In this document: piece after piece, positions 1,456-37,400 of the stretch
Numbering within the stretch: the stretch's first letter is position 1
How the letters are laid out: every line of letters starts with the position of its first letter
Assembly: GCA_964019425.1 (NCBI GenBank)
Contig: OZ025796.1
Location: 62,001 to 126,000, forward strand
Source of the DNA: Flectonema sp. DT1601
Lineage: Eukaryota
DNA: 64,000 nucleotides
Direction: 5' to 3'
Notes under the pieces: model-generated
Databases searched by the model: none
Seen by the model: only the letters and a program-made list of their open reading frames with translations
What the model was told of the DNA's origin: nothing
Made by a program: the position numbers and the translations under genes

Positions 1456-1498
<43 letters not shown>

Positions 1499-4560: not shown

Positions 4561-7500
4561 TTAGTTCATTTCATAAATAATTCCGTCAGGTCTCATTATG
4601 TCCTGTTTTGTTTGGTTTTAAATTACCCACAGTAAACACCAGTAAACACCAGTAAACACTTTAAAAAAAACAAATAGTACACACATCCTCATCAGTGAGA
4701 TCCACTGAGATTTCAATAACCTCATTAGAAGTTTCTAAAGCAGCCAACACCTGAGCCTTGGTAGTTACGCGAGTCTTGTCAATCGCAACGATGTGCATTC
4801 CTCTTTCTAAATTACTCTGATGACGATTGCGACACGATGTTATTATCAAATTATCATTAACTTCAATATAAAAAGGTTCAGAATCACCTCTGACTACAAC
4901 ATGAGGAACTTCTCTTAACCTCCCTTGGTTTTCATACCAATTGTCTTGAGTAACACTTTCTCGGAGTTTTCTTAATTTTGTCTTAACGTACCTTATAAAG
5001 TGTACGATGTGCTCACAGAGGACACCTTCAAAAACTCCACAAATAATATGTTCACCCATTAAGACGTCAGATATAATATCCATAAGTGATTGTTTCTGTC
5101 TCGGTTCTCCCAAACTTTTCAAGAAACTGCAGGCAGCGTCACTAACTGCTTCCATCACATCTAAAACTGTATCAGTAGCATGTGATTGCAAGTAACTCCG
5201 ATACCGTTCTTCGATTGTTTCAATTAAAGTTTCAGGTAGTCTCTCATGATATACTAATTCAATGTGTGATGTCAACCAATCACTTTTTTCCATTTTCTCT
5301 AATAGCAATACCATTACTTCTCTGACATGAGATAGTTGAACACCACACAGACTATTAGCAGTCAACGGAATGGTTTTTTTTATCCATCCCTTCCTCACAG
5401 CGTCATACAAACTCTCTGTAGGTTCTGTGTCGCGATCTTTAAATGCTGCAACCAGAACAGACAACAACATTGTAATCTGATCCTCAGAAAATCCCTTCGT
5501 AGCTTCCGTCAAGGTTTTCAGTTGAGGAGTACTAAGACGATTGCAGTGTCTGTCAGGTTGGACAGCAAGCTGTTTTGTTATCATTATTTTTTTTTTTCTG
5601 ACAAGAAAGTAGTAAACCCAACGCTAAGACATACCAAATCAATAGCAGATTGCTCAACTTCGTTAGACACGACGGGTTCTTCAGGATCCAGGAATCGGAA
5701 TGGCTGTTTTAATATTATTTTTTAAACCCATCCAATGTTGTGAAGTAAACACAGAAGTCACATCAAATAACAAAACACACCGCAAGGTAAGGCATTTCAA
5801 TCTTAGGAAGGATCAAACCAGAAGCGAAGCTCAATTCCTTTTCGATGCCGTTCCAGTCGACTTTAAATGAACGCGTCTCAGTGTCGTACTTCGCATGACT
5901 CCTGCACACTTCTCCAAGAGCAGAGTGTCCGAGTTCCTGCAACAGCAGGTCCGGGCGACTCGGTGAGAACGACGACAGGTCAACGTCCTCAATCTGAATC
6001 TTCGTGTGCTTCGCAACAATCGCTTGACACTTGTTGTACTTGTCAGTCAGTGAAGTCAGAGCAGCCTTAATCATATTCTTGTGTTGAGGATAAGGAGAGT
6101 CCGTGAACGTCAACCAGAAGTCCAGTGTTCCCGGCAATCCCGGAATGTTCCCTCCTCTTCGGATGTCATCGATGATCACATTAATTCCTCCCTGTTGACA
6201 TTCGAAATCAATCGGACCCACGTTCGTCATGAACTTGTTCCAGTTTTCTTGAATCCTCTTCAGCTCATCCACAGCTATCAAATACTGCGACTCGTGAGTG
6301 TGCTCTTCGAACAGTTCTAACACCGACCTGAATGGAGTCATCAGTTCATCTTCACCATCCGTGTACTTTAGAAGTAATCTGTTACTCAACATTCTCTGAA
6401 CTCTGTTTGAGAAACTGTACAGATCTGTAAGCAGAGGTGCCAACAACGCCAACTTCACATTCTCGTGGAGCGCCATCGTCAACAGCTCAGGTGTCTCTTC
6501 TGCACTCAAACGCTCAATAGCAGTGCGAATAGAACCCTCTCTCGGTAAGTCCAGAAAGTGTTGAGACTTCCAGTGAGTCAAAACGTTCAACGCGTGACAA
6601 GCGTCTTGTTGTGGTTTTGCGAGGAGCTTTTTGTCATTGTATCTCTGCCACAGAGCTTCGACTTCTCTCTCTGCTTCCATCGCTTCAGCTCTCGATTTGA
6701 AAGATTCCATTTTCAACACATCCGACGTCATCAATTGATGTGAGAAGTATGAAAAGATTTTCTGCGTCTCATCAACTGACAACCCAGTGAAGACTCCCAT
6801 GTGAAGATGGTAGGCAATACTTCTTTCAGTCATTTGATGAACAAGATGACGGTAATCACTAATTCCTTGTTGATATCCATGAATTCGTTCTCTGATAGTC
6901 GGAGAGAACATCCACTCCCACAGAGTTTTGAAGCTTTCCGGCCAGAGAGTCAACTGAATAGCGAGGGCACCGAATTCGACAGCCCACAACAAGTAACAAG
7001 CCCCAGTACTCAGCACCTCCTGTCCTCTGGAATACGAAGCGATCGCTCCGTTCTCATCTAATTGGGTGACGCAATCAAACTTGTAGCAACCTCCGTGTGT
7101 AACATCTCCGCCAGTCTTATCCCCAGGTAGGTAACGATGCTTCTGAGCATCCACATCGAAGAACATTGAGCCCATGAATGACTTCGGGTAGGCGCAAGCA
7201 ACACATAGTGATGTTATTATCACTTCAGTCCAGTCGCTTTTAAATCCTGCCAGTAGTGTTAGTGATATGTCAACTTCACAAGTCGGATAATCTTTTACTC
7301 TCCTCGCATCGAATGCGATGCCCAGCACTCGAAGTAGCTTTGCATCTAATTTAAGAACTTTTGCGAGTTCCTCGTTCTCAAGAAACTTGTCGGCCATTGG
7401 GTGACTGCTATTTTCACCAAAGAAACACTTAAAAGCAGCGTAGTAAAATAATAATCTTGTTGATTCTACTCCACGAATAGGAGCCCAGTCAACAATCATT

Positions 7501-10500
7501 TTCACAACCTTGTTGACTTGTTCCAAACTAGTGCTCTGCATGTCACCTGAGAGCATCATCTCTCTTTGAAGTTGCAAGAATGGAGTGTGAAGAGGATCTT
7601 CAATATCTACAACAAACGGAAGGTCACCAGCTTTTGCCTTCAGAGGTTCTGAGTTCTGACACTTGTGACGCATCGCTTCTCCGCAGATTGTTGGCATTGC
7701 ACCGACTCTGCCGGAATCCGAATCCACAACCTGGTCCTGCATATACAACAGCATCGACTTGGTACCCATTCCTCTCAGTGATCCAATTCCTGATTCTAAT
7801 GTGTTCATGAAAGTGAGTAAAGAGTTTTCTATTTCTAAATCTGGAGGATTGTTAATCAGCTTCAAGTCTTCCTGAGATAATCGTTCTGGACACTTGTAAC
7901 CAGCTGGCTCAAAGATACGCTTCGCTAACTTTGAAATCTTTTCAACTGTTTCATTGTTTTCCATGAATGATGGAGCCCAGTCTCTCTTGTCTTGTTGTTC
8001 AACAGGTCTGATAAAAACAACAGCAAGAGCAATTATAAAAGCAGCTTCCTTAGCCTTCATCATAACTGATAACAATGCTTTCTTACTTGTTGGAGAATCT
8101 TCAAACTCAGACAACATAACATTGTAGCTCTCGCAATTCCTCAAGCATGTGTCGACTAACACGTGCTCAGCATCCATTCCGAGGTCGTTATCATAACAAA
8201 CATCATAGACAGCGAGATACAATTTAGAATTCATCGACTTCTCCGCGTTTTTCCCGTTGGGATTGTAACTCTCGCACTTCGATCCCATCTTCTTCCCGGT
8301 CTCCCCCTCCGCCGCACTCTGAATCCACTTTTGCATCACTCCGTTCTTTGCCAACTCCACTGGAGCTGGAATACTGGATCCACGCGTCTCATTCAGCTGT
8401 CGGATGATCCGAGCAGCCATCGAACGAGTTACGTTGCTGCTGCCCTTCGCAACCACGAGACCGATGACGAACTGAGGAACCTTCGAATCCGATGTGAAAT
8501 CTCTGGAAAGCGATGCCAACTGCAGTGCGACTCTGCATGTCGAAGAGGGGTGCTCCTTGAGAAGGCTCTCAATGATCTTCAGATCAACAGGAACTGTTCC
8601 CTCACTCGCAGTATTGCAACTCGACTTGATAAAACTCTGAAACAGATCAATCGACTTCTTGTTCAGTTTATCGATTCCACTGATCACCGCTCCGATGATC
8701 GACAAGCAAGGCGCATGTTTGCTCTGTACAATCCATTCACTAGTCACTCGATGAAGCATCGATGAGCAAGCAGTCTTGAACTCTCCCAAACGGTTCTCAG
8801 CCATTTCAGGGAACGCTTCCAGCAGTAGCTGAGGACCCAATTCATGGGCAACCCAAGCAGCGTTGTGACCACTTTCCTGACTGATGATAGATGGAGGCTT
8901 CCTCTTATCAAGTGCGCCCATAGCCGCCAGTGGCACCATCGCCATGATGTAGTCATCCACAGCAGCCGACGCAACAGAACACAGAGCACGAATACTCCAA
9001 ACAGTTTCCTCTTTACCAGGAAAGTATAGTTGATGAAGTCCTCTAACTAATTCAAATACCCAGTTCAGAACATTCTCAACGATACGCAAGTCGCTGTATC
9101 TAATTCGACGTCTAATGTGATCACTTAAGAAAGCTAGCACTAACTCTCTATCAGATTGCACAGCGTCAACAAGTTCTCTAACCATTTCATCACCAAATCT
9201 TCTCTCCAACTCAGAGGCTGTTGCGACCACATCAACTGCATTGCTTGCCACTGGAAGGGTCTCAATGATAGATGATGATCCAGGAAGAGATGGCATGGAA
9301 ACACCGACGTAAATCGTATCCAAAGTGCTGACCTTCTTCCTTCTCAGTATGTCGAAAGTCGTCGCCCGTGACGCTACCTCAAGGGCCTTCGCTACAATCG
9401 TGTCACTCTTCGCCAACTCCTTCTCCTTCCCTTTTTGCGATGCAAGACAGAGCAACGCAGAAGCATTCCGGTCATCCAACAAGAACCTCAGCGCAAATGT
9501 CAACAGCGCGCGAGGCGCCTTGTTTTCTTCGTCGATCAACCGTTGCGCCAAACTCAGCGACTGCCCGTCCTGTGCAGCAACTTCCTTCGCCATCTCAACG
9601 AGTTCCAACTCCGTCGGCTGACGGGCTCTGTAGAAGTTCACCACCACCTTCTTCACCTTCGGGCACACCTTGAACAGCTTCTTTGCAATAGCAACCTGCT
9701 CGTCGAACGGCCGCTTCAGGTCGTACAGCGCAGACGCTGGATCCTCCTCCGGAACAGGCACCCACTTGGTCGCAGCCTCGCTCTGCGCCTGCATCAACGT
9801 GTTCATCGCACGGTCCAGCAACACCTCCAGATCCCTCCATTCTGGAATTGGTCTTGGAGCCCTCTTCCCGACGATCATCGGGTCAACGTACTGCTGCAGG
9901 TCGAGCTTCACGTGCTCCGCCGCAGCATCCAGATACACCTGATCCCATCCTGATCCGAACAGTGGAGTGCAGTTACTCGCCTCCGTCAGGTTCGAGTTCT
10001 GGAACGACTGGATGATCACGACTGCTTTGTCTGTCACCATGTCCTTCTCCTTCTCCCGCACATCTGGACGCGAGCTCAGCAAGTACCGCACCTCACGGCA
10101 CTCAGGCTTTCCGAGAGAGTCCGGGCTCATGATTAGCACAAAAACGTACTGCTCCGGATCCGTCGTGAAACGGTACAGCTCCTCCTTCAAGTCCTCCCGC
10201 CCGCGTTCAGATTCCAGCAGCCCGTCCAGAGAAAGGTGCGTCAGGTGCTCGATCGGCTCCAACAGTGACGGGAAGTCTGCGTTCGACGGTGAGAACACCA
10301 CCGACCGAAGCCAGTCCGCATCATCCCCGACTCCGCCCGTGGCTGACGGTGCCACCTTGTCTCGCAGATCTTCCAGGTACCCCGTCAGATCCCAAGGTGC
10401 CAAGTCTCGGAAGTACGCACGCAGGTACGCCGGTGCATCCTTCTTCAGCACTCTCTGAGCCAGAAGCATCCCCTCCGGTTTCAGAACCTGCAACATTCGG

Positions 10501-13500
10501 CAAGAGCTCGCCTTCCACCTCGCGTCGTCTGCGTTGCTCCCAGCCAAGAACCCGTCCAATGCATCGTCGTTTCGGATACGCAAGTTCACCGGCAGGTTCA
10601 TCAGAGTTCCCTGTTGAACCCCTTCCAATATCACAGAGTCGAACGTATCCACATCCGAGTCTCCGAACAGGCAACGATTCCGCACTGCTAGTGTCTTCTG
10701 GAACTTCGCTAACTTCTGCCTCACTTCCATCGCCGCCTCTCTCTCCTCGGGTTTCAGCTTCGCCAACGCGAACTCCAGAATGTCTTGCACCGTAATCGGG
10801 AACTTCTCCAGACGGTTCAGGAACGGAGAAGGCAGCACGTTCCCCATTCCCGTCAGCTCCCTCTTCGTCACGTGCACGATACACTGGAAATCTCGGTGCA
10901 CTCGCTTGTACTCCAGAGCCGCCCCCACAGCCACCGCCACGAAGTGCAGCGTCTCGTTCGCCCCGCTGCTTGCTACCACATAGTTCTGGTTGAACACGTC
11001 GAACAGGCACGCGTCGATGTCTCTCGTGTTGGTCAGCCACACCGTCCGTCCGGCCTCCATCGCCGCCACGATCTGCGACACCACCGTCACAGGCATCAGC
11101 TCGTCCCCGTATGAAAGTGAACTCAACGACAAAACACTCAGGTTGTTGAACTGCTCCACTCCCGTCTGCCGCAGCAGCTGAAGCATCGAACCGTCCTCCG
11201 TCGTGTCCACCAGCAGCTTGAACCGCACCCACATGTCGTTCAGGTTCTTCCCCGAAGCCTTCTCCGTCGCACGGTTGTTGTCCTTCAGCGAGTCGATCAC
11301 CACGTCCAGCTTCCGACGCAGCATCGGCTTCAGCTCATCAACCGAGTACGCCCCGTCCACCTCCCCGAGCGCCTCTCCGAACCTCCGCAGCGCCGCGTCG
11401 AAGTATTCCGAAGGTCCGTTGAAGTTCCGCTCCAACGCCCGCAGCACCAGCTCCGGCGACACCGTGATCAGCCCTTCCCCCGAGTTGTTTCGACGGATGT
11501 ATCGCATCATGTGGAACAAGTCTCGCAACCCAAACCACCAACGGAACTTCAAGCTCGGGTCGAACCCGACCAGCGTCTCCTCCTCGTCTTCCTTCGGAGG
11601 AGGGACCAATCGGTGGAACGCATCGCAGCAAGCCGGGATGATCCGCTTCGACACTTCGCACAGTCCCCGCACCCCGTGCTTGCTCAAGATCCCCGCACAC
11701 ATGTTCGTCAGTTCCTCCGGACGCGGCTTCGCCATGAACACCGTCACGCATCGGTTCCCGATTGCCGTGTCCAGCGACGTGTTCGTCATCAACACCGAAG
11801 CCAAGTTCGCCCCTTCCAGGTAGTAGTGCAGCACCTTCAGCGCCCACTTCCGCTCCACCGTCGCCCCCTTCACCAAACCAGCCTCGTCCACGAACAGCAG
11901 CGTTCGCTTGTTCAGTGTTCCAGAGCTGTCGTTCTCCAATTGCTTCTGGTACGCTTCCTCGCACTTCTTCTTGATCTCGTCCGCGCTGCTCTGCGCGGAT
12001 CCCTGGTAACGGCAGATGTCCGAAATGTGGCAGAAGTCTTTCCAGAACAGTCCGCATCCCTGCATGTTGTCTCGGATGATGTTGTTCGAAAGCGTCTTCG
12101 AAGTCCCCGGAGCTCCCTGCAAGATCACCGCCAACCGCAGCTCGAAGCAAACCATCTGCACGAACAGGTTCTCCATCAGCCCCTGGTGAGCGTACACCGC
12201 ATCCGGAAGCTTCAAGTGGTCGCTGTGGCAGTGGTACGTCACCGCCCGTTGCACCACCGTGTCGAACGCCACTCCCTGCGGGAACGCACGCACTTGCTTC
12301 TCCTCGTCCTCCCCCGCAAGCTGCGACAGCCGCTCCGTCAGCGCCTTCGACAGAGACGCCCGCTGCTCAGGAGGGAACCGGAAGTAGTACGAACACGCCA
12401 TGGCCACCGTCATCGCTGACAGCGTCCGGTCCCAAACATCAGCAGCCTGCTTCCCGTTGAACGAAATGTAGTCCACCCCCTGCTTGTAGAAGAAGTCGAA
12501 CAGCTTCATCGTTCGGTGAATGTCTCGCTGCGAAACCGTCGATCTCTTGTGAGCAACTGCCCGCTGCGCGAACTTGTGCGTGTGCAGCAGCAGGTCCGAC
12601 AGCGCCCGCAGCTGCGACTGACGGATCGATGCCGCGAACAGGTTTCGGTTGCTTCCCATCAGCCGCATGATGAACATCTCCCGTTGGTTCGCCGCCAGCT
12701 GCTTCCACGGAACAATGTGCTCCTTCAGCGCTGGCTGCATCGGAGTCACGTCGAACCCGAGCTTCTCCCCAGACTCCTTCGTCTGCTTCTTCGTCTCCTC
12801 CTCCGGGTACTCCTCCACATCCAGTCCCTCCAGCGACGCGTCCTTCGTCGTCGGGTTCACCGCTCCCAAGAACGACACGTTCGGTGGCAGGATTCCGTTC
12901 GTCTCCGGGTGACTCAACTCCCACTTATCCCAATACCGATCCACCACAATTCTCTTAATCAATCCCAACATGTTCGTAGCATTCATCTCATCGATCATTA
13001 TCATGAAGTTGATCGTCGGACACTTCAAAGCCTTCTCCAGCATCGGAGACATTTGATCGAACAACATATCCACCGTCATGTCGTATCTCATCAGGATGAT
13101 CAGTGAACTCTTCGACCGCTTCAGAGTCAGAGTTCTCCTCAGCAGGTCTGCGAGAGCCTCACCGGAATTCTCACCTCCATCTGAAAGGTCACGGAGGAGA
13201 CTAGGTGGCGGGTCGAGGATCGGAGAAAGTCGAATTTGGTTTCTCAGCTCTGCGCGAACTGCTCGGCACAGGGCAGGACCGTTTGCCTTCGCCGCAGTGA
13301 AAGCTTCCTTAGCCCAGGTTTGAATTCCATCAAAAAGATGTCTTTTGTTTAGAATCGATTCAAATTGTGAAAAACTCGCGCCCGCAAGTTTCCTCATCGT
13401 CTGAGAACTGAGTGCGCTTCCCATGGTGTCACGAATTTGTCCAACGAGGAAACCACCACTCACTCTATTTAATGAATTCACAACTTCTTCGAGTGCGGTA

Positions 13501-16500
13501 TAGAGTTTTTCAGAACGCTCTTTATCATTTCCAATGTCTTTGGGTACTCCAGAGTTTAGTATCTTAACGGAATCCCTAAACTTCTGCTTGCGAGGGTCGT
13601 CTAATATCTCAGCAATGTTTGGATTAGATATTCTGTCATTGATCAGAGGTCCTAAAACATCGTTAACACATTCTCTCAGGTAGTCTAAGGCGTCGAAGTC
13701 ACCCTTGTCTACTAATATTCTCATACATTGAATCGAACGAACACTTCCGTTTGCAAAGTTAGCGTCTACAATGATTCCTGTCTTTCCATATCCGAGACTA
13801 ACGTCAGGTTCTCCGTCAGGAAATAGTTTCTTTAGTTCCTTTGTTTGCTTTACCCATTTCGCAAATGTTGAGATCAAATCATTATGACCTTCTCTCTTTA
13901 CGGCTGCTGATGCATTTGGAGGAAGTTGTAGTAAGTCAGAAAGCATTGTTACAGCGTAACTCTTTCCTGTTCCTGATGGCCCTTGAAGAATTGGTGGATC
14001 CTGAATTCTAAGATGGCAATACATTTGAACTAACTTCTGTAAGAAGTCAGGGATGAGGACGTAGTTTTGTCCTCTCAAAGCCGTCACGGCGCTACGTTTC
14101 TCAATACAAAGTTCATCAGCCAAAGATTCGATGAGTGTGTGAAGTGGTGCAGTGCTTTGCTGTTCGCGTCGTTTTTGAGCAGCGGCACGGAGTTGTTGTT
14201 TCTGACCCTTTTCATCAGATTTGTCTGCTTTCATTTGAAGCATGAAATCCAATCGCTCATCAGTTTCATCGATTATTGCTTGTCGTAGTTTTTGTAATGC
14301 GGTAACAGCTTCCCCCTCAAAAGGTTCTGCAAGCTTGTCCATTGAGAACTCCATTCGTTGTTTGATACCACCACCCATAACAACAATATGATAATTATCC
14401 TTACTATGAGGGAATAACATCGTATGCATTTCATGCATTAATGTTCTTACAACTAGAGCTTGTTTCTTTGTTCTTCTTGCTGAGTCAAGTGATTTTAACT
14501 TTGTTATATACATCTTATATTGGTACACGAGATGCTTTAATGATCTGACTAACATTCTGTTAGTAATAGTTTCCATTTGTAATTCTAATTCCTGTCTTTC
14601 AACTGCCGGTATCGATTCAATCTCAACGGTGTCATGTCCAAGACACATTAGCTTTAATGTATTCAGATCATGTTTATTGTCACTTGGAACATCAGTGAGA
14701 GTATCTTTAATGAAGCTCATTGCTTCTTGAGCACCAGGTACTTCCTTAATATCAAAATCGTCTAAAGTGCCAGCAGTAGCTAAACCAGAACACGCCAACA
14801 GAGTGATATCAGTCATCCCATTTGACCGTTTCCATGGACCATTCACATCCTTTTCTCTTCCGAGAGATTCCTTCGCGTCAGGAGGATGTTGGAACTCGAC
14901 AACCAAATGCCAAGTCTTCTTCGGAATCGAAACGGCCAGACCGCTGTTCGATTCGATCCGACCAAAGAAGATCAGAGAATCCAAAACCTGATTGACGATC
15001 TGAGGGTCACTGTCTTGTCCGACGTGAATCACTAGCAGTCCGTGTCGTTCCCTCATCGGTCCCATCAGCCGAGTGCAGATCTCATCCAGCGAGTTCTTCG
15101 TCGAATCCAAATCCAAGCGAGTCGGTAACACGCTTCCGAACTCTCCAGACTTGATCTTCTTGTCTATCGAATAAGACTTTCCAGTTCCACATCTCTGAAG
15201 GTAGTAAGTGATTGACTTGAAGTTGTTCAGCTCACAGCATCTACCCATCGCCCACTTCTTCCACTTCACGTCACACGACAAGTTGTCCACGTACTCCACA
15301 GTCTCGTCACTCCCATCACCGCCCGTCACCACAGCGATCAGTTCTTTGTGCTCGTGTTTCCCTTCTGTCGCGAGCCGCACCTCATTCTGTTGGTCCGGTG
15401 ACAACAAGTTCAGGTTCATCACAACGAGTCTTCCCTTTTTCGTCTGCTTGTACAGCTGCAGGAACGCCCTCACGTTCTCCGCTGGTGTCTGCGCAGTGCA
15501 GTCCAACACGTGGTAAGGACGCACGTCTCCCTCATGCAGCGCTATCGCAAATAACTTCCTGTCTGACACAGCTAATCTACTGGTGTCTACGATAGCTCCC
15601 TCGACAGTACGAGTCTGCAGTTGTCCGTAACGGGCCGCCGCCGGGTCGTAGTTGCATGAAATTCGAGGGTCCTTCGCGTTCTTGTTCTTCTTCCTCAGAA
15701 TTTGCAACAGTTTTCCGATTCTGTCCAACGTGCTCAGGGCTCCTTCCGCAATCACCGCCTTCGCTACAGCCGTCGACTCCCAATCTGTGAACATCTCCAG
15801 TCCGTTCGTTGAACCCTCGGCTGCCTCCCTCAGTGCGATACGGAGCTCAGCCGCTCGGCAGACTGCGCCAGTCGATTTCTCGATTGTGTGCCAGACAGCG
15901 AGTTCGTCTTCAGTCATGGAGTCCATTGAAGACTTTGAAACAGTCGCCTGAAGTTGTACAGCAGGTCGAAAGTCAACAGATTGAAGTTCTGGAATATTAC
16001 TTTTATTAGCACTTTCCCAACCAGTACCAAATTCATGGCGGTTCCAATACAGACCTGAAGCATCTTGTTTTAACTCTTCAAGTGATGAGCAGGCCAATAC
16101 ATTAACTCTCGCTCCTTCACGCCAACTCTTACCATCTCCCCAAGTCCACTTCGTACAGTAGTGTGGGAATGGTTGATCCATTGAAGACATGTACAGCCCT
16201 TCGGTATTCTTTCCATTTTTAAAGGAAACCACCCATCTCTGCACATTCGAATCTCTGCTGAGGCGAAGTTCATCATTTTCATAAATGACGAATCCCTTCT
16301 TGTCAGTCTGCTTCTGAAGTGTCAGAATACCACCAGGACGAGACTTTGATACGACTCTGATACAATAAGGCTTCTCTTGGAATCCATCAACAACAGTCCA
16401 TCTCAGAGGTTCTGATCCAATCCTCGCTGTTCCCTTGCACGGGTTCGACCAAGCAACAGGTCTTTCTGCAGCATCAGTGACGCACCAACGACCGTCCCAA

Positions 16501-19500
16501 TAAGTCATTCTGTATTTTCCATCTTTTCTGTTGTAGGTAGGAATCCATCTTCTGTAGAGACCATCACAGATGCCATCCTTTTCTTTATCAGGAGGAGTAG
16601 TTCCTTTAATTACAACTGATACATCATCAAGACATGATGACTCTTGAGAATGATGACTAAAGAATGTACACTTCACATCCTTTCCTCTGAAGACGACGTA
16701 TGGTACTAAAGGTCCTTCAACCTTTGGAAAGTTCTTAGTGGTGACAGAATTGAATAATCTCTCACCATCTGAATGAATGTCGATAGTTCCTTCACCAAGA
16801 TCAACAGTGAAGCTTAGTCTGACCTCAAGAGGTTTCGTGTCAGCATTAGTACTTCCTAAGTTACGAGTATGCTTAAGAACGAATACACTTCCATCACGTC
16901 TAGCTTGCATTGCAAACATTGAGGTATCAGGTTCTGTTGACTTGTTGAGAGGAACACCTGGAGCAGCAACACCAATACCAACATGTTCTGAAAGATTTCT
17001 CCCTTTGACAAGTATTGAAAAGGTATGAGGACCTGGTCCTACCATTACTCTGTTTCCTAATGCGATTGTTTCTGTTTCTGTTTCTGAAATAACAGTTGGT
17101 CCATCGATCTTTAATCCCTTTCCAATATGCTCTGTGTTCCATCCGAGTACCTCATCGACTGGCTCACCAGGACTGATGACCGCTTTAGCAGTCTTATTGA
17201 CTAGGTAAACACAAGGCTTTAGACTTCTACTAACGTCGGTAAACCGAGCAAGGTTTCTCCTACCGTTTAACTTGAAGTCGATTGTCTTCGCTTTCTGATC
17301 ATAAATAACGGTGATGATATCACCACTTCGGAATGCTCTGGCGTTGTCAACATCGAGTCCATTGTGTCTGAGAGTACCATTTCTCATATACCAATAGGCA
17401 CTCTCTTTGTTGGGAGACTCGTCTACCGGCTTTCCAAGATCAAGGTCCTTCGTACAGAGACCTATTCTTGAAGCAAAGACGTCACCTGTGATCTTTATTC
17501 TCCATATCAACGCTGGTGCTGGAGAGACTGCGATGGCAGGTGCTGTGCCGCGCATTTTCGTAACTTCTCTGCCATTCGCAGATATGATCGCGTCTTTAGT
17601 TGTAACTAACCAAATATAAGCAGGAATTACTGTGGCTGTAAAGTTTGGTTTCGCCTTTGCTGACTCGGTGTTGAATTCCTTAGCGAGATCGGAAATCTTT
17701 TTAGTTCTTTTGTTATTAACTGCAACGATACGCATGCCTGCTTCGAATCCGAGTGATTCCCACACGGAGTACTTCGCACAACTTATAACATAAAGTGTGC
17801 TCGCCATCTCCTTCAGTCCGAGGGCCTCTAAAACCTTCGGTGACTGAACGTGAATGTTGTGTTCCGCACCTCTGCAATCATCAGACCACTTCTCAACAAT
17901 CGTGAATGCATCGTCAGCCTGTACTTTTGCGTTCAAACAAGGCTGTTCGTTTAAGAATCCGTGACTGTCACTTTCCCTCCAGTCACCCATCTGCCATGGC
18001 TGAAGGTAAGATTCATTATCAGACATCGATACTAATAATCTCCTCGCGTTCATTACAGGTTTATCATACACAACCCATCCACCAGCAACAGGAGAGAGTA
18101 CTAATCCGTCTTCACGTTTGTACATCCAGAGACCCTTTTCAAACTCTCCATCACAGACACCAAGTCCTTCAAATAGTAAAGGTTCGTTGTCTTCAGGGAG
18201 CTTTACAAAAGGTATTGATGCAAATTTACGGGTCTGAATTGCTGTCGACAAGACGCTTACTGACATGTCCACAGTTTCATATTCATGGACGGCGGCTGCT
18301 CTCTCAACGCGTTGAATCATTTTCATCTTTCCCTTTCTCCAACTCAGTAAGCGACCCATATCCTGTATCGAGTGTGTTATGCTGGCTGTGCTTCTCATTA
18401 ACTCAGCAGTTCTCACAAGCTCAGCAGGAGTGACACAGATAATCTCCGGGTACTTCTGACACATTTTCACAAACAGGGAAGTCGTGCTCTCGGAGTCCTT
18501 CGCCCACTGGCCCTCCAATGACTGCAGCATCTGAGTCAGACGAGCAGCGTCATCATGTCTGAAAGTGATTCTCCTCGATCTGAACTCAATGTGACCCTCA
18601 CTGAAGAGGGCACACGCCGTGTTGAAAGCCCTCATCACCTCACGTGCTTGGTTAGCGAACACTTCCAATGAACTGTGCTCATTACGCTGCAACGTTGCTC
18701 TGTAGACAAGATCACTGTACTCAGCCATGTTTCGCAACTTACCGTCGTGAGCATCGAATTCGAGAGCAGGTTGCCCAGTTGTTGGGAGGTTGATGATGAT
18801 CAAAGCAGCACTTCTATCAATGTAGTCATCCTCATCAACTTGAATACCTTCCGGGATTCCCTGAAGTCCTGATGCGTAGTGACAGACGATTATCATTCTG
18901 TCTGTAGTTCCTGACTGTTCTTTAATCATCTTCACTAGTTTCTCAATCTCATCAACAGCAGTCATCTTCTCAAGCTTCTTTTGAATGTTTCGCACGTCTT
19001 GCAGGGTGTCATCTCCAAACGAGTTGTTCATCAGCGACCAGAACCCATCGCCAGTGATATCAGACCCAGCCACGAACCCGCTGTTCGAAATAGGAATTCG
19101 CATCTCAACACCACTGTAGGGGATGTCACCTTGCTCACCAGCGTCTCTCTTGTCTTGAATTAATTGTGATCTCCTCTCATTGAATTGCTCTACGTATGCT
19201 GAAGACGCCCACACGAATGGATTCACAAAGTTTGTCAAGTTGAAGAAAGTCTGGAAAGAAGCGTGTTGCAAATCTGTCGAGTTCGAAAGAACTGACGCAA
19301 GACCTTCATCCTGTGCCTCAGGGTTCTCACGAGTGAATTCAACCAACTCCGTGCAGTTGTACACCGTCCTCATGATTTCCAGAACACGGTGCTCACAACC
19401 ACAACTCACTCGCTTGATTTCAGTCGAACGTATCTTCGCATCTTTCAACGTCACCTTCGACAAGTCATCGTCGAGAAGGATACGTTTTTCAGTTTCGTTG

Positions 19501-22500
19501 AAGAACTGCGAGTGGAATCTCAAATCCTTTTGAGGAGAGTTCACCATTCTTCTCAGAATTTCCAAGTCGTGTACGACAAAACGAAGAGGAAGACCTCCGT
19601 CAAGGAGAGCGTTGATGGCATCTTTGTCTGCCTTGATCTCCTCCATCAGAGCCTTCTCTTGTCTTTTTCTACCCTGCTCGTAGTTTCCATCAGGCGGGTG
19701 AAGCCCAGCAACAGCCTGTTCGATGGTGCTATCCAATTTGATACTTGACAGAGACTTGCAAGCATCTCCGAAGGAATTTTGGAATTCAGCCAGTGAGACT
19801 CCCTTGTTGTCACACAGAATGAGAAAGTGTGCTCGCAGTAACGGACTCGATGTAGCATGCGGTAGAGTAAGAGCTTCTCCGAGTGTCACACCAGCCTTCT
19901 TCACCAGCTTCTCGAGATCATCCAAGTTCACGAGTTCCTTGCGTACAATGGATTCCGTAAATTCATTCAAAAGTTCTCCCGCTCCTTTAACTTCCCATTG
20001 CTCTACGAGTTCCCTCAGTACATTACCGCTGTGCTCAAGCTTCTCAATCGGGGCGTTGAAGTCAAGTTCTGGAAATGTGATTCCATTACGTTCATGAATT
20101 CCACTGTGCTGTTTAGATAAAGAGTACACATGTCGACTGATGCGGTGACTATTCAATCGATTTTGGAATTCTTTAGTAGCTGTTTCGATTCTCATCGCAA
20201 AGTTCTTAGCTGGAGTAAACTTACTCTCCAGAAGACACACCTGCTTTAAGTCAATTGGAATGGAGTCCCACTTGACTGATCGTGAGTCAAAGTACACAGA
20301 CAGCAGAGTGTCAGCAGCATCAGCACGAATACCCGTCAGCTCTGACATCTCTCTTGCGGTGCATAGAATCCAATCATCAAGTCCATGAATCTTTTGAGTG
20401 ATTACTATTCTCTCACAACAAAGTCCCCATAACTTTATCATAAAGTCTCCATACTCTTTTGTATGATCAGATCTCTTACGATGTGCAAACACACGTTTAA
20501 GTAAAGGAAGTGATGCCATTCCTCTGTAGTTCTCTAACCATCTAGCATCCCAACCTGAAATAATATCTCTCAATTGTGGAACACAAGCAGAAATAGCTCT
20601 CTTACCCCAAGAACAAGTAACTGGGTTAACAGTTGATCTTTGAAACCAACAGATATGACGATCACCTCCCCATGAACCAGAAATATAATCTGGACTACGG
20701 GAGGTACCCTGAGCGATGAGAACTACCTGAAAAGTAACATCTCTTGATTCAGGTACGTTGAGTAACGACATGTGTTCTCGTTTCATTGACCGTTTGATGG
20801 TCAGGGTAAAGCGAAGTTCAACATCTCCATATTTCACATTAGAAATGATTCCAGAAGACAGAGCTGGATGGTTCAAAGCAATATGATGACCAGTAACAGT
20901 GAAGGCATCAGGATAACAAAGATTATTAAATCCATTCAACCAAGTCCATCCTCCATCAAAATCATGACGAGACACGAGAGAGAGTGCATTGACAACAGCA
21001 AGTGGGTCACCACTCTGACGAACTTCTGTCTGTGTGATGAGCTTCAGGGAAGCCATCACACCAGTTGGTGTTGGCTGCAGATCTTTCTCTTCGAATGCCA
21101 ACCCGTATATGGATATTAAATTGACGCAAGGATGTCTCATCGCTTGACTGTGCAGCCATCCCTTCGGACCAGAAATCGTTCCCTTCAACTTCGTATCGGA
21201 ATCCTCAATCGCACGAAGTACTACGATCAGAGTCTCTGGATAGCAGTGGCGGACATTAAACTTGTCTCCCCTGTCTCCAAGAAACTGTAACAGTGACGAT
21301 GCGAATCCAGGTAACTCGCTGAACGCCTTCTTACACTTATCGTACAGGTCAGGGGCAGGAGGGGCCTTGAGAGTTGTTTGGAGAACACGAGAGGCGAATG
21401 ATACGACAGGCTCCCCACGATATTCATCCTTTTGGAGAATGATTTTTTCAAACCTGTTTGGATTTGATTCGTCTCTCAATATAATTGGAATTCTTGTTTC
21501 ATTACTCTGATGATGTTGATGTTGTGGAAGAGGGATCCAAATTGTGTACTTCTCGAGTTGAATTCCGAAATGTGGAGTAATCTTAGGAGTGGGACAGAAT
21601 GGGAAGTCCGTGTCATCTTCAAGTTTAACGCACACGGCAGTAATACGAGTGGGTAAGAGACCAAATATATCTACTCTGTAACCTTCTTCTCGACGAGTTG
21701 AATGAGAGAAGTTCAATTCACAGCCGCAGGTGTACCACCTTCCCTGTAGAATGCGATCTCCTCTTCGCATTCCACGTCTTCCCATTGGGTTGCCTGCAAT
21801 TAGTTCATCATCTCCAATGAAATCACCAGCACCACTACGGGCTGACTCTTGTTTTGCTTGCTCAACACGAGTGTCAGTTCCTAATATTCCAAAAGACTCT
21901 TCATGAGGAATACCTTCAGCTGAGTGGTGTAGAATATATTCAGCTTCGGTATCGTCAACTCGTACCAGTGAAAAGTCATTCATTGGAGCTGTGCTGAAAG
22001 AGCTTGCTTGCCACATTAGTAGTTCTGCTGCCCTCCTGCTGTCAAAATACTTTTCGAGAGCCTGTCGGATGACGTCGGACCAATTTAACGCTTCTTTTGA
22101 TATTGCTGAAACAAATTCCGACAGCATTGCAAATGCTGCGGATGGAAGCTTACCATACGGCAACTTGTTAGCTGATTTCCGCATCAGTTTTATGATTTGA
22201 TTGTTCAGAGGAGTTCCACAGAGGATTTCGATACTCGAAAAGTCTCGTTTTTTACTACTTTCAGCCATCCGAAGGCAACACAAGACTATACTCTCATGTA
22301 TAAGAAGAGTGTCTTTAGTCAAAGATTCTAAGATGTGTTGCTCAGACTCGATGGGAAACTCTTCCTGTGAAACTACTTTACACAAAGTTTGATAAGCACA
22401 CATCATAACAATTAGTACAAGTGGAATAGTTGTAGAAGAGTACTCTTCACATAACCTTCTAGTACATTCAGTAACTGTTCTCAAAATCGGATAAAACTGA

Positions 22501-22727
22501 CAGGCTGTTGGAACTTTTCTGTGTCTATCGTTCAACTCCTTTGCGTTTTCAGTAAATAATCTTTTGAAGATGACTATAATATATGTTGCTGCATCTTCAT
22601 TCCAGGTACCAGTGAGAAGAGATTTCAAATTCACCTCCCAATTCTCAGTAATACCAACAAGTTTTTTCAGATCTGCCTGCGGTAGCTCAATATTTAATTC
22701 GTTCTGGACGCCTACATTATCTCGCAT
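4561..22727 (-). CDS. Giant RNF213/mysterin-like multi-AAA+ ATPase, paralog A (~5,980 aa). Predicted exons 22727-5781, 5703-5635, 5569-4685, 4602-4561
   Basis: 5654-aa ORF with YLQRCGTGKSY, LQGPSGTGKS..IMIDEMN, LQGAPGTSKTLS..LLFVDEAGL, FGLRDLFHMMRY, LERNFNG, FDVFNQNY, RVHRDFQCIV and PSPFLNRLEK, matching the RNF213 AAA-core motif series in order. Three phase-0 GT..CAG introns join the ORF in frame to a 69-nt exon, the 4661-5584 ORF and a terminal DIMRPDGIIYEMN* exon. Confidence 0.88.
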
Positions 22728-22767: not shown

Positions 22768-23103
22768 TAAACCCATACTCTCATCTACTAATTGGTAGAG
22801 TAAACCCATACTCTCATCTACTAATTGGTAGAGTAAACCCATACTCTCATCTACTAATTGGTAGAGTAAACCCATACTCTCATCTACTAATTGGTAGAGT
22901 AAACCCATACTCTCATCTACTAATTGGTAGAGTAAACCCATACTCTCATCTACTAATTGGTAGAGTAAACCCATACTCTCATCTACTAATTGGTAGAGTA
23001 AACCCATACTCTCATCTACTAATTGGTAGAGTAAACCCATACTCTCATCTACTAATTGGTAGAGTAAACCCATACTCTCATCTACTAATTGGTAGAGTAA
23101 ACC
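22768..23103. repeat. Perfect 33-bp minisatellite, 10 copies plus 6 nt
   Basis: TAAACCCATACTCTCATCTACTAATTGGTAGAG repeats at 22768, 22801 ... 23065 with no spacers. Confidence 0.97.
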
Positions 23104-31444: not shown

Positions 31445-34400
31445 TTAGTCATAGTCAGGCATTTCTTCATCGTGGTCAGCACCACCTTCTCCATCACCTG
31501 CATTAGCGCGTAGCTGTTTGTTTAATTGTTCGGCATGTTTTCTTTCTGTTTGCTCGGATGAGAGAGCTTTCTGAAGACGAGAACACTTGGCTTCCAATTC
31601 TTTGCTCGATTCACAAGTCTTTTTTAGTTCTGCCTGCAGTCTCGCAATCTCCTCTCTATCGTCTCTTTTTTGTTTTAACAGCTTTTCATCAATCGCCTGT
31701 AGACCTGCTTTCTCACTCTTTGTTCTTCTCAAAAGGCTTGAGTTCTGTCTTTCAATAGCGCCAATCTTCGCTGCTGTCGCACCTGCATCAGTAGCAGGCT
31801 GGTCATCACCGACTGAGAAGCTTCCACCATTGTGAGATACCATACTAGGAAGACCTGATGGGTTTCTACGGAGAGATGCTTTTCTTTGAAGAACTTTGAC
31901 CTGTTATGTTAAAAGTTTGATTAGCACACATTATGTTAATACATCCTTCCCCCCCCCTTAACTATATTATAAAGAATAACATACATCTCCACTCAAATCC
32001 TTCGAAGGCTGTCTAAGACCTAGTCCTGATGCAAGTCTTGGTAATCCCTGATTTTAAAGTATTTTTTTTATTTTTAAAAAGTGAATGTTACCTGAAAAAT
32101 GTTATTAACAACATACAGGTGTTGATATCGATGTTTGTCTCGGTAAGTCACCTCCTTCTTCCTTATCGAATAAGATAGTTGAGGTGGCGCGTTCTAGTTC
32201 ATCCTGTGGTGGTGGTTGTTGTTTGTTGTTATTAAAGTCTTTAAAACAGAAATAAATTCCATACAGTGCTGGTATCGATTTCTACAGAGATTTCGAAGAT
32301 CTTCGACACCTTCAGCAGGCATTGCTCCACCTGCTCCCTAACGTGAACGCGAGTGCTGTCAATTGCAACGATTCTCATACCACGTTCAAGTTTACTTCGA
32401 CTGACAGGACCTTCATTGATTGTTGTAATTACTAAGTCATCATCATACATAAATCCAAGTTCATCATGAGCTTCATCTTCATTAACAACAATCACATAAG
32501 GGAGTTCTGTTAGCATTCCTTCATCTTCATGCCAACTGTTTTGAGTCATACTTTCTCTCAACTTTCTTATTTTTCTCTTTATAAATCTAATAAAGTGAAC
32601 AACATGTTCACAAAGAATTCCCTCAAATAATTCATAAAGACTGTCATCCATTAACGCTACAGCGATATTTTCCATAAGAGGTTGCTTTGGATCCTCTAGA
32701 CTGTCGAGGTATACGCAAGTAGTGTCATCAACAGCAGCGAGTAACTCGAGCATGTTTGATATACTTTCAGCATCATAGAGTCTGATGAGGTATCGCTCTT
32801 CAACTGCCGCAAGAACAGGTTCAGGTATCTTCTCAAGGAATGCGAATCCAATGTGTGATGTCAACCAATCACCACGTTCCATCTTTTCAAGAAAGATTGC
32901 AATAACTTCTCTCACTTGAGACACTGAAACACGTGGAAGTGCTTGTGAAGTCAGAGGCATAGTTGTCTTCTGTACCCATCTCTTCTTTAAAGCCGCAAAC
33001 AGACTTCCCTTCGGATCTGTATCATGAGCTTTAAACGTCGCAACCAACCCGAGCATTTGTTGAGTGATGTTATCTTCTGTAAATCCTTTTGAAGCTTCTC
33101 TCAAAGCAGAGTCTTGGGCGGGTGTTAATTTCACGCAATGACGGTCTGGCTGTACGGTCAGCTGTTTTTTATTTTTTAGTAAATAATCAAAAGAATCCAG
33201 TTCTTAAATCTCACAGTGGGTACTGATATAAAGACTGGCACCCTCCGAATTATCTAAATTCATAAATAACATACCAAGTCCATCGCCGATTGCTCAACTT
33301 CAGTAGAGACAACGGGTTCTTCAGGATCACGGAATCGGAATGGCTGTATTGTTGTTTTTGTTGTTGTTAGTTTTTCATATAAATAATAGAACAGTTGCAA
33401 AGTTTACTATCCTTGAGGTAGTGTTTTAGTGAACCGCTATCAAGAAAACAAAATAACAAAACACACCGCAAGGTAAGGCATTTCAATCTTAGGAAGGATC
33501 AAACCAGAAGCGAAGCTCAATTCCTTTTCGATGCCGTTCCAGTCGACTTTAAATGAACGCGTCTCAGTGTCGTACTTCGCATGACTCCTGCACACTTCTC
33601 CAAGAGCAGAGTGTCCGAGTTCCTGCAACAGCAGGTCCGGGCGACTCGGTGAGAACGACGACAGGTCAACGTCCTCAATCTGAATCTTCGTGTGCTTCGC
33701 AACAATCGCTTGACACTTGTTGTACTTGTCAGTCAGTGAAGTCAGAGCAGCCTTAATCATATTCTTGTGTTGAGGATAAGGAGAGTCCGTGAACGTCAAC
33801 CAGAAGTCCAGTGTTCCCGGCAATCCCGGAATGTTCCCTCCTCTTCGGATGTCATCGATGATCACATTAATTCCTCCCTGTTGACATTCGAAATCAATCG
33901 GACCCACGTTCGTCATGAACTTGTTCCAGTTTTCTTGAATCCTCTTCAGCTCATCCACAGCTATCAAATACTGCGACTCGTGAGTGTGCTCTTCGAACAG
34001 TTCTAACACCGACCTGAATGGAGTCATCAGTTCATCTTCACCATCCGTGTACTTTAGAAGTAATCTGTTACTCAACATTCTCTGAACTCTGTTTGAGAAA
34101 CTGTACAGATCTGTAAGCAGAGGTGCCAACAACGCCAACTTCACATTCTCGTGGAGCGCCATCGTCAACAGCTCAGGTGTCTCTTCTGCACTCAAACGCT
34201 CAATAGCAGTGCGAATAGAACCCTCTCTCGGTAAGTTAACAAAACGTTGGTATCTCCAATTCGTTAATACTCTGAGTGCGTGACAAGCGTCTTGTTGTGG
34301 TTTTGTGAGTAGCTTTCTGTCTGTTGTTGTGTACCTCTTCCACAGAGATTCGACTTCTCTCTCTGCTTCCATCGCTTCAGCTCTCGATTTGAAAGATTCA

Positions 34401-37400
34401 TTCTTTACAAGTCTATCACTAATCATTAGCTTTTCGACGAAGAACGAAAAGATTTTCTGCGTCTCATCAACTGACAACCCAGTGAAGACTCCCATGTGAA
34501 GATGGTAGGCAATACTTCTTTCAGTCATTTGATGAACAAGATGACGGTAATCACTAATTCCTTGTTGATATCCATGAATTCGTTCTCTGATAGTCGGAGA
34601 GAACATCCACTCCCACAGAGTTTTGAAGCTTTCCGGCCAGAGAGTCAACTGAATAGCGAGGGCACCGAATTCGACAGCCCACAACAAGTAACAAGCACCA
34701 GTACTCAGCACCTCCTGTCCTCTGGAATACGAAGCGATCGCTCCGCTTTCATCTAATTGGGTGACGCAATCAAACTTGTAGCAACCTCCGTGTGTGACAT
34801 CTCCACCAGTCTTATCTCCAGGTATGAAACGATGCTTCTGAGCATCCACATCGAAGAACATTGAGCCCATGAATGACTTCGGGTAGGCGCAAGCAACACA
34901 TAGTGATGTTATTATCATTTCAGTCCAGTCGTTTTCAAATCCTCTCATTAGCGAAGACGTCAAGTCGACTTCTCCATTTGAGTAATCCTTACACTTCTTA
35001 TTATCAAATGCCATACCAAGTACACGTAACAATTTGTTGTCTAAGTGGAGAGCACTTTTCAGGGAAGCATTTTCAAGGAATTTATCAGCCATTGGATGGA
35101 CTGCAACTTCACCAAAGAAACACTTAAAGGAGACGTAAAAGAGTAGTAGTCTGGCCTTTTGAACTCCGTGTATTGGGACCCAGTCAACAATCATTTTCAC
35201 AACCTTGTTGACCTGTTCCAAACTAGTGCTCTGCATGTCACCTGAGAGCATCATCTCTCTTTGAAGTTGCAAGAATGGAGTGTGAAGAGGATCTTCAATA
35301 TCTACAACAAACGGAAGGTCACCAGCTTTTGCCTTCAGAGGTTCTGAGTTCTGACACTTGTGACGCATCGCTTCTCCGCAGATTGTTGGCATTGCACCGA
35401 CTCTGCCGGAATCCGAATCCACAACCTGGTCCTGCATATACAACAGCATCGACTTGGTACCCATTCCTCTCAGTGATCCAATTCCTGATTCTAATGTGTT
35501 CATGAAAGTGAGTAAAGAGTTTTCTATTTCTAAATCTGGAGGATTATCGATTAACTTCGAATCCTCAGACGACAAACGAGCAGGGCACTTGTAACCAGCT
35601 GGCTCAAAGATACGCTTCGCTAACTTTGAAATCTTTTCAACTGCTTCCTTGTTTTCCATGAATGATGGAGCCCAGTCTCTCTTGTCTTGTTGTTCAGATG
35701 GTCTCATGAATACGACAGCTAACGAAACAATAAAAGCAGCTTCCTTAGCCTTCATCATAACCGAAAGAATGGACTTTCCTTCAATCGAAGCTCTAGCGGA
35801 AGCAGTAAGCAACTCCTCATAGCTCTCGCATTTCCTCAAGCAGGCGTCGACTAACACGTGCTCAGCATCCATTCCGAGGTCGTTATCATAACAAACATCA
35901 TAGACAGCGAGATACAATTTAGAATTCATCGACTTCTCCGCGTTTTTCCCGTTGGGATTGTAACTCTCGCACTTCGATCCCATCTTCTTCCCGGTCTCCC
36001 CCTCAGCCGCACTCTGAATCCACTTTTGCATCACTCCGTTCTTTGCCAACTCCACTGGAGCTGGAATACTGGATCCACGCGTCTCATTCAGCTGTCGGAT
36101 GATCCGAGCAGCCATCGAACGAGTTACGTTGCTGCTGCCCTTCGCAACCACGAGACCGATGACGAACTGAGGAACCTTCGAATCCGATGTGAAATCTCTG
36201 GAAAGCGATGCCAACTGCAGTGCGACTCTGCATGTCGAAGAGGGGTGCTCCTTGAGAAGGCTCTCAATGATCTTCAGATCAACAGGAACTGTTCCCTCAC
36301 TTGCAGTATTGCAACTCGACTTGATAAAACTCTGAAACAGATCAATCGACTTCTTGTTCAGTTTATCGATTCCACTGATCACCGCTCCGATGATCGACAA
36401 GCAAGGCGCATGTTTGCTCTGTACAATCCATTCACTAGTCACTCGATGAAGCATCGATGAGCAAGCAGTCTTGAACTCTCCCAAACGGTTCTCAGCCATT
36501 TCAGGGAACGCTTCCAGCAGTAGCTGAGGACCCAATTCGTGGGCAACCCAAGCAGCGTTGTGACCACTTTCCTGACTGATGATAGATGGAGGCTTCCTCT
36601 TATCAAGTGCGCCCATAGCCGCCAGTGGCACCATCGCCATGATGTAGTCATCCACAGCAGCCGACGCAACAGAACACAGAGCACGAATACTCCAAACAGT
36701 TTCCTCTTTACCAGGAAAGTATAGTTGATGAAGTCCTCTAACTAATTCAAATACCCAGTTCAGAACATTCTCAACGATTACAATATTGCTGTAACGAACT
36801 CTGCACCTAATGTGATCTCTTAGGAATGATAATACAAGTGAATGATCAGAATGTACAGCACCAACAAGTTCTCTAACCATTTCATCATCATGTTTCAATT
36901 CAAGATCTGCTGCAGTCTGCACAACATCTACAGCATTGCTTGCCACTGGAAGGGTCTCAATGATAGATGATGATCCAGGAAGAGATGGCATGGAAACACC
37001 GACGTAAATCGTATCCAAAGTGCTGACCTTCTTCCTTCTCAGTATGTCGAAAGTCGTTGCCCGTGACGCTACCTCAAGGGCCTTCGCTACAATCGTGTCA
37101 CTCTTCGCCAACTCCTTCTCCTTCCCTTTTTGCGATGCAAGACAGAGCAACGCAGAAGCATTCCGGTCATCCAACAAGAACCTCAGCGCAAATGTCAACA
37201 GCGCGCGAGGCGCCTTGTTTTCTTCGTCGATCAACCGTTGCGCCAAACTCAGCGACTGCCCGTCCTGTGCAGCAACTTCCTTCGCCATCTCAACGAGTTC
37301 CAACTCCGTCGGCTGACGGGCTCTGTAGAAGTTCACCACCACCTTCTTCACCTTCGGGCACACCTTGAACAGCTTCTTTGCAATAGCAACCTGCTCGTCG

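Follow-up and report, generated by a model that had tools for sequence, protein, structure and literature searches.

A predicted PDZ-like and double-SPRY module ahead of an RNF213-like AAA core in giant diplonemid proteins, carried by a mosaic pair of paralogs

Within a window of 64,000 nucleotides from Flectonema sp. DT1601 (assembly GCA_964019425.1, contig OZ025796.1, positions 62,001 to 126,000), two tandem genes on the same strand and 28 kb apart, here called paralogs or copies A and B, each encode a giant protein in which a module of predicted PDZ-like and SPRY folds precedes an AAA core related to that of RNF213. The module runs in the order Trp-rich unit (W1), PDZ-like domain, SPRY-1, SPRY-2 and two further Trp-rich units (W2 and W3), about 700 residues before the first P-loop, and between the two copies it is a patchwork of identical and diverged blocks. 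On balance we favor a reading in which the module serves as a docking platform, while the contrast between the paralogs arises from GC-biased gene conversion around older blocks that are under purifying selection.

The segment that drew attention to this locus, 16100-18200 on the reverse strand, translates to 700 stop-free residues (P0001) corresponding to amino acids 1510-2209 of paralog A. All of the peptide strings that an initial annotation had picked out as marks of a PDZ-like segment and two SPRY-like segments are present in frame 1 of this segment, inside a single open reading frame (ORF) of 5654 amino acids. Its positions also agree closely with ours, with the PDZ-like segment placed at ~17630-17860 (17616-17873 in our hands) and the SPRY-2 of the second paralog at 44330-44870 (44336-44869).

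Consistent with this annotation, a Pfam search with the 700-residue piece returns SPRY in two stretches (E 9.5e-18), with PDZ_6 only below threshold, and in a sequence search of solved structures the sole match at E ≤ 0.001 is the SPRY domain of HERC1 (4qt6, E 1.5e-6), which falls on SPRY-1. Taken domain by domain, the Pfam evidence upholds SPRY-1 but leaves the other two calls below the cut-off. SPRY-1 alone (17121-17540 on the reverse strand, residues 13-119 of its translation) scores 44.7 bits against a PF00622 cut-off of 26.3 and covers profile positions 4-115 of 121. SPRY-2, which counts as the second stretch in the 700-residue piece, by itself gives no match in copy A and 23.5 bits (E 6.4e-5) in copy B, under the same cut-off, and the PDZ-like segment reaches 17.1 bits against 27 for PDZ_6 and 15.6 against 23.2 for PDZ.

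Predicted structure carries the identification further. We modeled the module with AlphaFold from an alignment (A1) of seven sequences, namely the two copies and five relatives, in which 133 columns are invariant; the mean predicted local distance difference test score (pLDDT) is 66.8 and the predicted template modeling score (pTM) 0.47, with the PDZ-like domain and SPRY-1 at roughly 72-88 and the loops of SPRY-2 low. Foldseek with this model returns ryanodine receptors, which carry tandem SPRY domains, together with SPSB2 and the RanBPM SPRY domain, at E 1e-6 to 5e-10. When the model was compared with 48,161 chains in VIA-align, the three domains were resolved individually by model range. The PDZ-like range (model residues 110-195), with a predicted topology of E-E-E-H-E-H-E and pLDDT 72-88, superposes, over residues 112-194, on the Dvl3 PDZ domain 8s6a (Z 10.8, root-mean-square deviation (rmsd) 2.1, 82 of 86 residues aligned); further PDZ domains score Z 9.9-10.3, among them Par-6 (Z 10.2), USH1C, NHERF, MPDZ and whirlin (Z 9.9-10.2). 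SPRY-1 (193-348) superposes on the HERC1 SPRY domain (Z 17.3, rmsd 2.5, 144 of 159 aligned). SPRY-2 (346-517) is closest to the PRY-SPRY domain of TRIM16L (6sjh; Z 15.8, rmsd 3.0, 153 aligned), and among other B30.2 domains TRIM14 gives Z 15.3, TRIM5alpha Z 12.9 and many TRIM and butyrophilin domains Z 13-15 (model residues 346-521). The assignment of SPRY-1 is thus borne out by both Pfam and predicted fold, and the folds of SPRY-2 and the PDZ-like domain are predictions from comparing a model with solved structures.

PDZ domains have a conserved GLGF-type carboxylate-binding loop before strand 2. In our alignments this loop is not kept, reading LGL in copy A and MDL, LDV, LGL or LDL in relatives, and we use only the label PDZ-like because of this. 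As a separate observation, the PDZ-like core was weakly paired with the C-terminus of another protein, P0013 (phmmer E 1.2), and a tail exon of paralog B (32241-33056, reverse strand) holds a second short lookalike of this core, with a motif of the 'ERGMRIVAI' type.

The Trp-rich flanks that the initial annotation placed upstream of an AAA ring are also seen here as predicted all-beta units, with an RNF213-like AAA region downstream. W1 is locally similar to W2 (z 6.3) and to W3 (z 5.5) against 300 shuffles; W2 and W3 show no significant likeness to each other by the same measure (z 0.7). A second model covering the C-terminal flank (model 2, from a 10-sequence alignment, A2) reaches pLDDT 81.4 and pTM 0.70 and is all beta. 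Foldseek with this model gives no match at E ≤ 0.001, the best being fascin at E 0.012 with an rmsd above 15, W1 has no Pfam match, and the best ESM Atlas score for the C-terminal flank, 0.88, lies under the 0.9 level taken as a lead. In VIA-align, W2 yields beta-propeller-blade-like matches alone (Z 3.4-4.1), and the best solved match of W3 is DNMT5 (7r76 residues 870-1158; Z 8.0, rmsd 2.8, 90 aligned), with the next row at Z 5.0. As the tool's own note gives Z 8 as typical of models without true relatives, we do not assign the DNMT5 fold to W3, nor any solved fold to the W units. The Trp-rich flanks are thus predicted, from these models, to be three copies of an all-beta unit without a clear solved relative.

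Downstream of the module follows a dynein-like AAA core homologous to that of RNF213. In copy A, residues ~3240-4000 align with RNF213 chains of mouse and human for ~760 residues (E 1.4e-22, phmmer against PDB sequences), with residues 1030-1792 of the AAA query piece aligned to RNF213 residues 1918-2633. Nine of the 10 PDB sequence matches to the AAA core at E ≤ 1 are RNF213 chains. Regular expressions find two Walker A/B pairs, with P-loops at residues 2916 and 3538 and Walker B-like motifs at residues 3242 and 3610. The zinc fingers of the ligase were not found alongside this core. For RING, Pfam reports no family at E ≤ 1 in any of five pieces of copy A, a regular expression matches 0 of 14 relatives, and none is listed in the precomputed Pfam annotation of 26 diplonemid-type rows of a search with the AAA core. 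PF20173, which we take to be the RZ-type zinc finger (one source label agrees), is listed in 0 of these 26 rows and in 26 fungal, animal and other rows of the same search; neither copy A, at E ≤ 1, nor the two tail-exon ORFs scanned, at E ≤ 0.01, yielded a match to it. The C-terminal 1245 residues of copy A have no PDB sequence match at E ≤ 1. Passages of the structural report on mouse RNF213 describe its N-arm as a disordered region with helical bundles, after which come a linker, the six AAA units, a hinge and finally the E3 module; they describe neither SPRY nor PDZ domains there (PMC7311170). As far as this description extends, it agrees with the earlier statement that SPRY lies outside the canonical RNF213 architecture.

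An exhaustive HMMER search with the 700-residue module among 1.84 billion representatives returned 29 proteins at E ≤ 1e-3, of which 19 reach E ≤ 1e-30; most matches cover nearly the whole module, and most of the proteins are 2500-6700 amino acids long. The whole module recurs together in about 20 protein clusters, with a strict P-loop ~650-1420 residues after its start in all 18 members that have one. We looked up 20 clusters; 15 have a name, either their own or that of a cluster-mate, and all of these names belong to diplonemids: Diplonema papillatum, D. ambulator, D. japonicum, Rhynchopus humris, R. euleeides, Flectonema neradi, Sulcionema specki, Lacrimia lanifica and Namystynia karyoxenos. 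The closest named relative is from F. neradi; identity to it is 78% in the module and 92% in the AAA core. Two members, P0020 and P0024 from D. ambulator and D. papillatum, have an extra SPRY-like stretch upstream of W1, and the number of SPRY domains thus varies in the family.

Searching with the AAA core instead gave 89 giant proteins. Of these, 20 have SPRY (PF00622) among their listed families, and all 20 stand within the 26 best rows, which are of diplonemid type. It is listed for none of the remaining 63, which come from rotifers, sponges, stramenopiles, dictyostelids, glomeromycete fungi, molluscs and vertebrates and list SAM, VWA, USP peptidase, RING families and PF20173 instead. This confinement of SPRY to the diplonemid-type rows indicates, at the level of sequence searches, that the PDZ/double-SPRY fusion is a lineage-specific architecture on a widespread AAA core. 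Named family members carry only 'hypothetical protein' or transcript names as source labels, which makes the domain map a new annotation, and among the open-access papers listed by our searches none deals, by title or abstract, with a fusion of SPRY to an RNF213-like protein or with such proteins in diplonemids. What is known here is the motor family and the domain folds; what is new is their lineage-specific combination, the apparent lack of ligase fingers, the unassigned beta unit and a conversion mosaic between the paralogs.

That mosaic stands out clearly. In 50-residue protein windows, copies A and B are either 100% or 40-80% identical, and 3217 of the 5748 aligned codons lie in 33 DNA-identical runs of at least 40 codons. 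After smoothing over 41 codons, the 17-kb gene divides from end to end into 25 segments, in which 13 diverged ones alternate with 12 identical ones. Some of the boundaries fall inside the module. The contrast reported initially, of a SPRY-1 nearly identical between the paralogs beside a SPRY-2 that differs at many residues, is confirmed: in the SPRY-1 core the DNA of the two copies is the same, and the SPRY-2 block (residues 1901-2053 of A) is 60% identical in protein, with a ratio of nonsynonymous to synonymous substitution rates (dN/dS) of 0.18. By the Nei-Gojobori method, the proportion of synonymous sites that differ in the diverged blocks is 0.31-0.79, near saturation, with dN/dS of 0.13-0.51 and a synonymous rate (dS) of about 1 or more. 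The identical-type codons hold 36 differences in 9159 nt and have a GC content at third codon positions (GC3) of 0.63, compared with 0.34 (A) and 0.38 (B) in diverged-type codons, and along the window GC content is highest, at 0.59, in each copy's identical AAA block. Outside the genes, blastn at E 1e-5 shows no DNA similarity between their flanks.

Comparison with F. neradi sets this pattern in time. The F. neradi transcript-derived protein P0005 is clearly nearer to B than copy A is in 9 of 12 diverged blocks, as in SPRY-2, where B and P0005 are 0.81 identical and A and B only 0.59; in the identical blocks, A equals B, whereas P0005 is only 0.79-0.94 identical. Nine F. neradi Trinity isoforms (the P0005 cluster, P0036-P0043, 6066-6277 amino acids) swap whole diverged blocks; at 3 of the 12 such blocks an isoform may be either A-like or B-like, and all nine are B-like in SPRY-2, which suggests that F. 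neradi has the same mosaic paralog pair, its two copies merged by transcriptome assemblers. The simplest account is that the paralog duplication is older than the split from F. neradi, and recurrent, GC-biased gene conversion has probably homogenized ~55-60% of the coding sequence since that old duplication, the mosaic itself being known from the assembly. The contrast between SPRY-1 and SPRY-2 then marks the ends of conversion tracts and not hypervariability of SPRY-2.

Copies of 17 kb that lie 28 kb apart and share kilobase-scale identical stretches are hard to assemble, and the mosaic might reflect collapsed or cross-polished tandem copies, leaving the paralog contrast without biological meaning. 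We regard such an artifact as highly unlikely. Both copies keep intact frames of 5654 and 5733 codons, the 36 differences in the identical-type parts are scattered, and GC3 differs strongly between block types in both copies, which polishing would not create. Moreover, an independent transcriptome of another species contains the isoforms that switch between A-like and B-like blocks, and a recorded protein from a 481,603-bp contig matches as copy B does, at 85% over the module and 100% over residues 3150-4100.

The initial annotation had taken the contrast as the sign of a variable sensor module. In this explanation SPRY-2 would be a fast-diversifying ligand recognizer like the B30.2 domain of TRIM5alpha, with the paralogs split by selection for specificity. 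SPRY-2 does best resemble TRIM PRY-SPRY/B30.2 folds (Z 13-15.8), it is 60% identical between the paralogs beside an identical SPRY-1 core, a second species retains the two diverged versions of some blocks, and vertebrate RNF213 acts in cell-autonomous immunity according to part of one published account (PMC11549300). Other observations point the opposite way, and we consider this explanation quite unlikely. The annotation had tied its idea to substitutions concentrating in surface loops of the SPRY fold, and no such enrichment was found: with DSSP states from the model, 26 of 63 loop sites and 21 of 60 strand or helix sites differ in the SPRY-2 core (odds ratio (OR) 1.31, p 0.58), and the same comparison gives OR 1.38 (p 0.17) over residues 120-544 and OR 1.02 in the PDZ block. 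The dN/dS of the SPRY-2 block is typical of all diverged blocks, lying within the 0.13-0.51 of the other 11 with a finite estimate. SPRY-2 is also just one among about 12 such blocks, which include the N-terminus and the first AAA part. Among 15 family members, mean pairwise identity is similar in SPRY-2 (0.35) and SPRY-1 (0.37), and the substitutions between A and B fall on positions that vary in the family (mean family conservation 0.41, vs 0.53 at unchanged sites). Finally, the 81% identity of the B SPRY-2 to the F. neradi protein marks it as slow-evolving, and in SPRY-2 the two copies lie equally far from 14 outgroup sequences (0.325 vs 0.331, A lower in 9 of 14, Wilcoxon p 0.33). Given this equidistance and the intact frame, we also reject accelerated change or degeneration of SPRY-2 in copy A.

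PDZ and SPRY folds bind peptides and proteins in HERC1, SPSB, RanBPM/CTLH, TRIM and PDZ scaffold proteins. By analogy, we propose that partners or substrates would be recognized through peptide motifs by the PDZ-like and SPRY domains, which would either hand them to the double-AAA motor or anchor it, with the W-rich beta units as spacers or further binding surfaces. An old duplication would have been followed by repeated GC-biased conversion that homogenized part of the gene, while the unconverted blocks, including the PDZ-like domain and SPRY-2, would have been kept distinct by purifying selection. The persisting ancient versions of the PDZ-like domain and SPRY-2 may give the paralogs different partners.

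The main rival to this docking role is a purely structural module, in which the SPRY, PDZ-like and W-rich domains would pack on the N-arm or the AAA ring as rigid scaffolding, like SPRY1-3 of ryanodine receptors, and take no external ligand. Top Foldseek matches over 400-580 columns are ryanodine receptors (E 1e-7 to 7e-6), the module is evenly conserved across the family, the GLGF-type loop is not conserved, and the position of the module is fixed relative to the P-loop, all of which would suit such a scaffold. However, the extra upstream SPRY of the two Diplonema proteins means that SPRY number varies, as is more typical of adaptor modules, and the SAM, VWA, USP, RING and RZ domains that other clades carry with the same AAA core suggest exchangeable targeting parts. 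Overall, we rate a purely structural module as rather unlikely.

Several points nonetheless weigh against the docking and conversion reading. We infer the docking function from fold analogy, and solely from that; a scaffold role fits equally well if one takes as the guide the ryanodine receptors, in which tandem SPRY domains are mainly structural, and the altered loop makes classical C-terminal peptide binding by the PDZ-like domain doubtful. The module model, with its seven sequences, is only moderate, and the loop test takes its DSSP states from this predicted model and is not a test of solvent exposure. The dN/dS values are pairwise block averages with dS near saturation, leaving a few positively selected sites possible. 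As to conversion, the high GC3 of the identical blocks could come partly from codon bias in the most conserved parts, and P0005, drawn from a nine-isoform Trinity assembly, may itself be a chimera of paralogs. An A-type SPRY-2 was found in no other species, whether by searching with the SPRY-2 of A against proteins of 343-2000 amino acids or by a region search among the giant proteins.

Taking the same observations further, one might see in these genes an RNF213-type machine rebuilt without RING and RZ fingers and with a beta module of new fold, whose paralogs work as two cassettes: the motor and most of the arm are homogenized by biased conversion, and ancient alternative blocks, namely the PDZ-like domain, SPRY-2 and the N-terminal and first-AAA blocks, are kept by selection so that each copy is sent to a different target. 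We put this joint reading forward tentatively, as possible but not likely.

Neither giant frame is the whole gene. A tblastn search with the tail of P0005 (6267 amino acids) places short introns and then tail exons after each (Table 1), and two tail-exon ORFs have no Pfam match at E ≤ 0.01. At the other end, a perfect tandem repeat of 33 bp in 10.2 copies (100% matches, 22768-23103) precedes the first ATG of paralog A by ~40 bp, and a Gly/Met-rich N-terminal stretch is present in copy B and P0005 and not in copy A. Two ORFs between the paralogs, without a Pfam match at E ≤ 0.01, may be remnants of mobile elements. Four neighboring long ORFs with Pfam matches share one strand and have long unbroken frames encoding ordinary eukaryotic proteins. 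A tRNA scan found no tRNA gene in the window.

Table 1. Positions of the giant genes, module domains, paralog blocks and neighboring features in the window (rows headed "Block" are in residues of copy A)
Feature	Position	Strand	Description
Paralog A giant first exon	5763..22727	-	5654-codon open frame (ORF list and translation); P-loops at residues 2916 and 3538
Paralog A tail exons	~5703-5626 and 5569-4685	-	tblastn with P0005 tail
Paralog B giant first exon	33440..50641	-	5733 amino acids counted from first ATG
Paralog B tail exons	~33161-32274 and 32203-31448	-	tblastn with P0005 tail
Paralog B copy of module	43805-45919	-	SPRY-2 of B at 44336-44869
W1	17901..18179	-	P0001 residues ~8-100; predicted strands, pLDDT 44-66; DNA-identical to B (run 17844-18203)
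PDZ-like domain	17616..17873	-	P0001 residues 110-195; predicted fold; diverged block
SPRY-1	17166..17615	-	P0001 residues 196-345; core 17238-17504 DNA-identical to paralog B
SPRY-2	16650..17165	-	P0001 residues 346-517; predicted fold, nearest PRY-SPRY/B30.2
W2	16365..16571	-	P0001 residues 544-612 (model 2: 8-65); DNA-identical to B (run 16026-16568)
W3	16089..16364	-	Model 2 residues ~69-165; pLDDT blocks 71-93
Block: W1	1509-1628		Identical to B
Block: PDZ-like and first SPRY-1 strands	1629-1741		Diverged; amino acid identity 0.74, dN/dS 0.19
Block: SPRY-1 core	1742-1830		Identical at DNA level
Block: SPRY-1 end, SPRY-2, linker	1831-2053		Diverged; identity 0.84 then 0.60
Block: W2 and W3	2054-2234		Identical
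Inter-paralog ORFs	24289-24771 and 25798-26430	-	160 and 210 amino acids; first with Cys/His-rich end
VWA-domain protein	1114-3852	-	Pfam on neighboring ORF
Calpain-type protease	50960-54067	-	Pfam on neighboring ORF
FAD-dependent glycerol-3-phosphate dehydrogenase	54712-56652	-	Pfam on neighboring ORF
GCD14-type tRNA methyltransferase subunit	57061-58077	-	Pfam on neighboring ORF

RNF213 has been studied almost only in vertebrates, as a moyamoya disease factor and an immune ligase. Here, the same AAA core is seen in a free-living protist lineage with wholly different accessory domains and no recognizable ligase fingers, and the clade-specific accessory domains found with this core elsewhere (SAM, VWA, USP, RING and RZ) support the idea of a family in which the motor is conserved and the parts for targeting and effector functions can be exchanged. 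In addition, the paralog pair offers a clean natural case of gene conversion acting block by block within a 17-kb exon, with a strong footprint in GC3.

Among known systems, the closest parallel is RNF213 itself, with which these proteins share giant size (~6000 amino acids), a homologous AAA region with two P-loop/Walker B pairs and a long N-terminal arm before the ring; they differ in that no RING was found in the diplonemid family and in the PDZ-like domain and double SPRY of the family's arm, neither of which is described for RNF213 in the portions of the structural account drawn on above. HERC1, a giant HECT E3 that combines a single SPRY with RLD, WD40 and HECT domains, is the closest solved relative of SPRY-1 in both sequence and fold and likewise places SPRY inside a very large multidomain enzyme, but it is without the AAA core, PDZ and W-rich units. 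The SPRY1-3 domains of ryanodine receptors, the best multidomain Foldseek matches, show several SPRY domains in a row in a giant protein; these receptors are, however, ion channels with no homology beyond the SPRY folds, at 11-14% identity. The B30.2 domains of TRIM proteins such as TRIM5alpha superpose on SPRY-2, but in the diplonemid proteins the RING-B-box-coiled-coil context is absent, and SPRY-2 bears no sign of diversifying selection or loop-focused variation.

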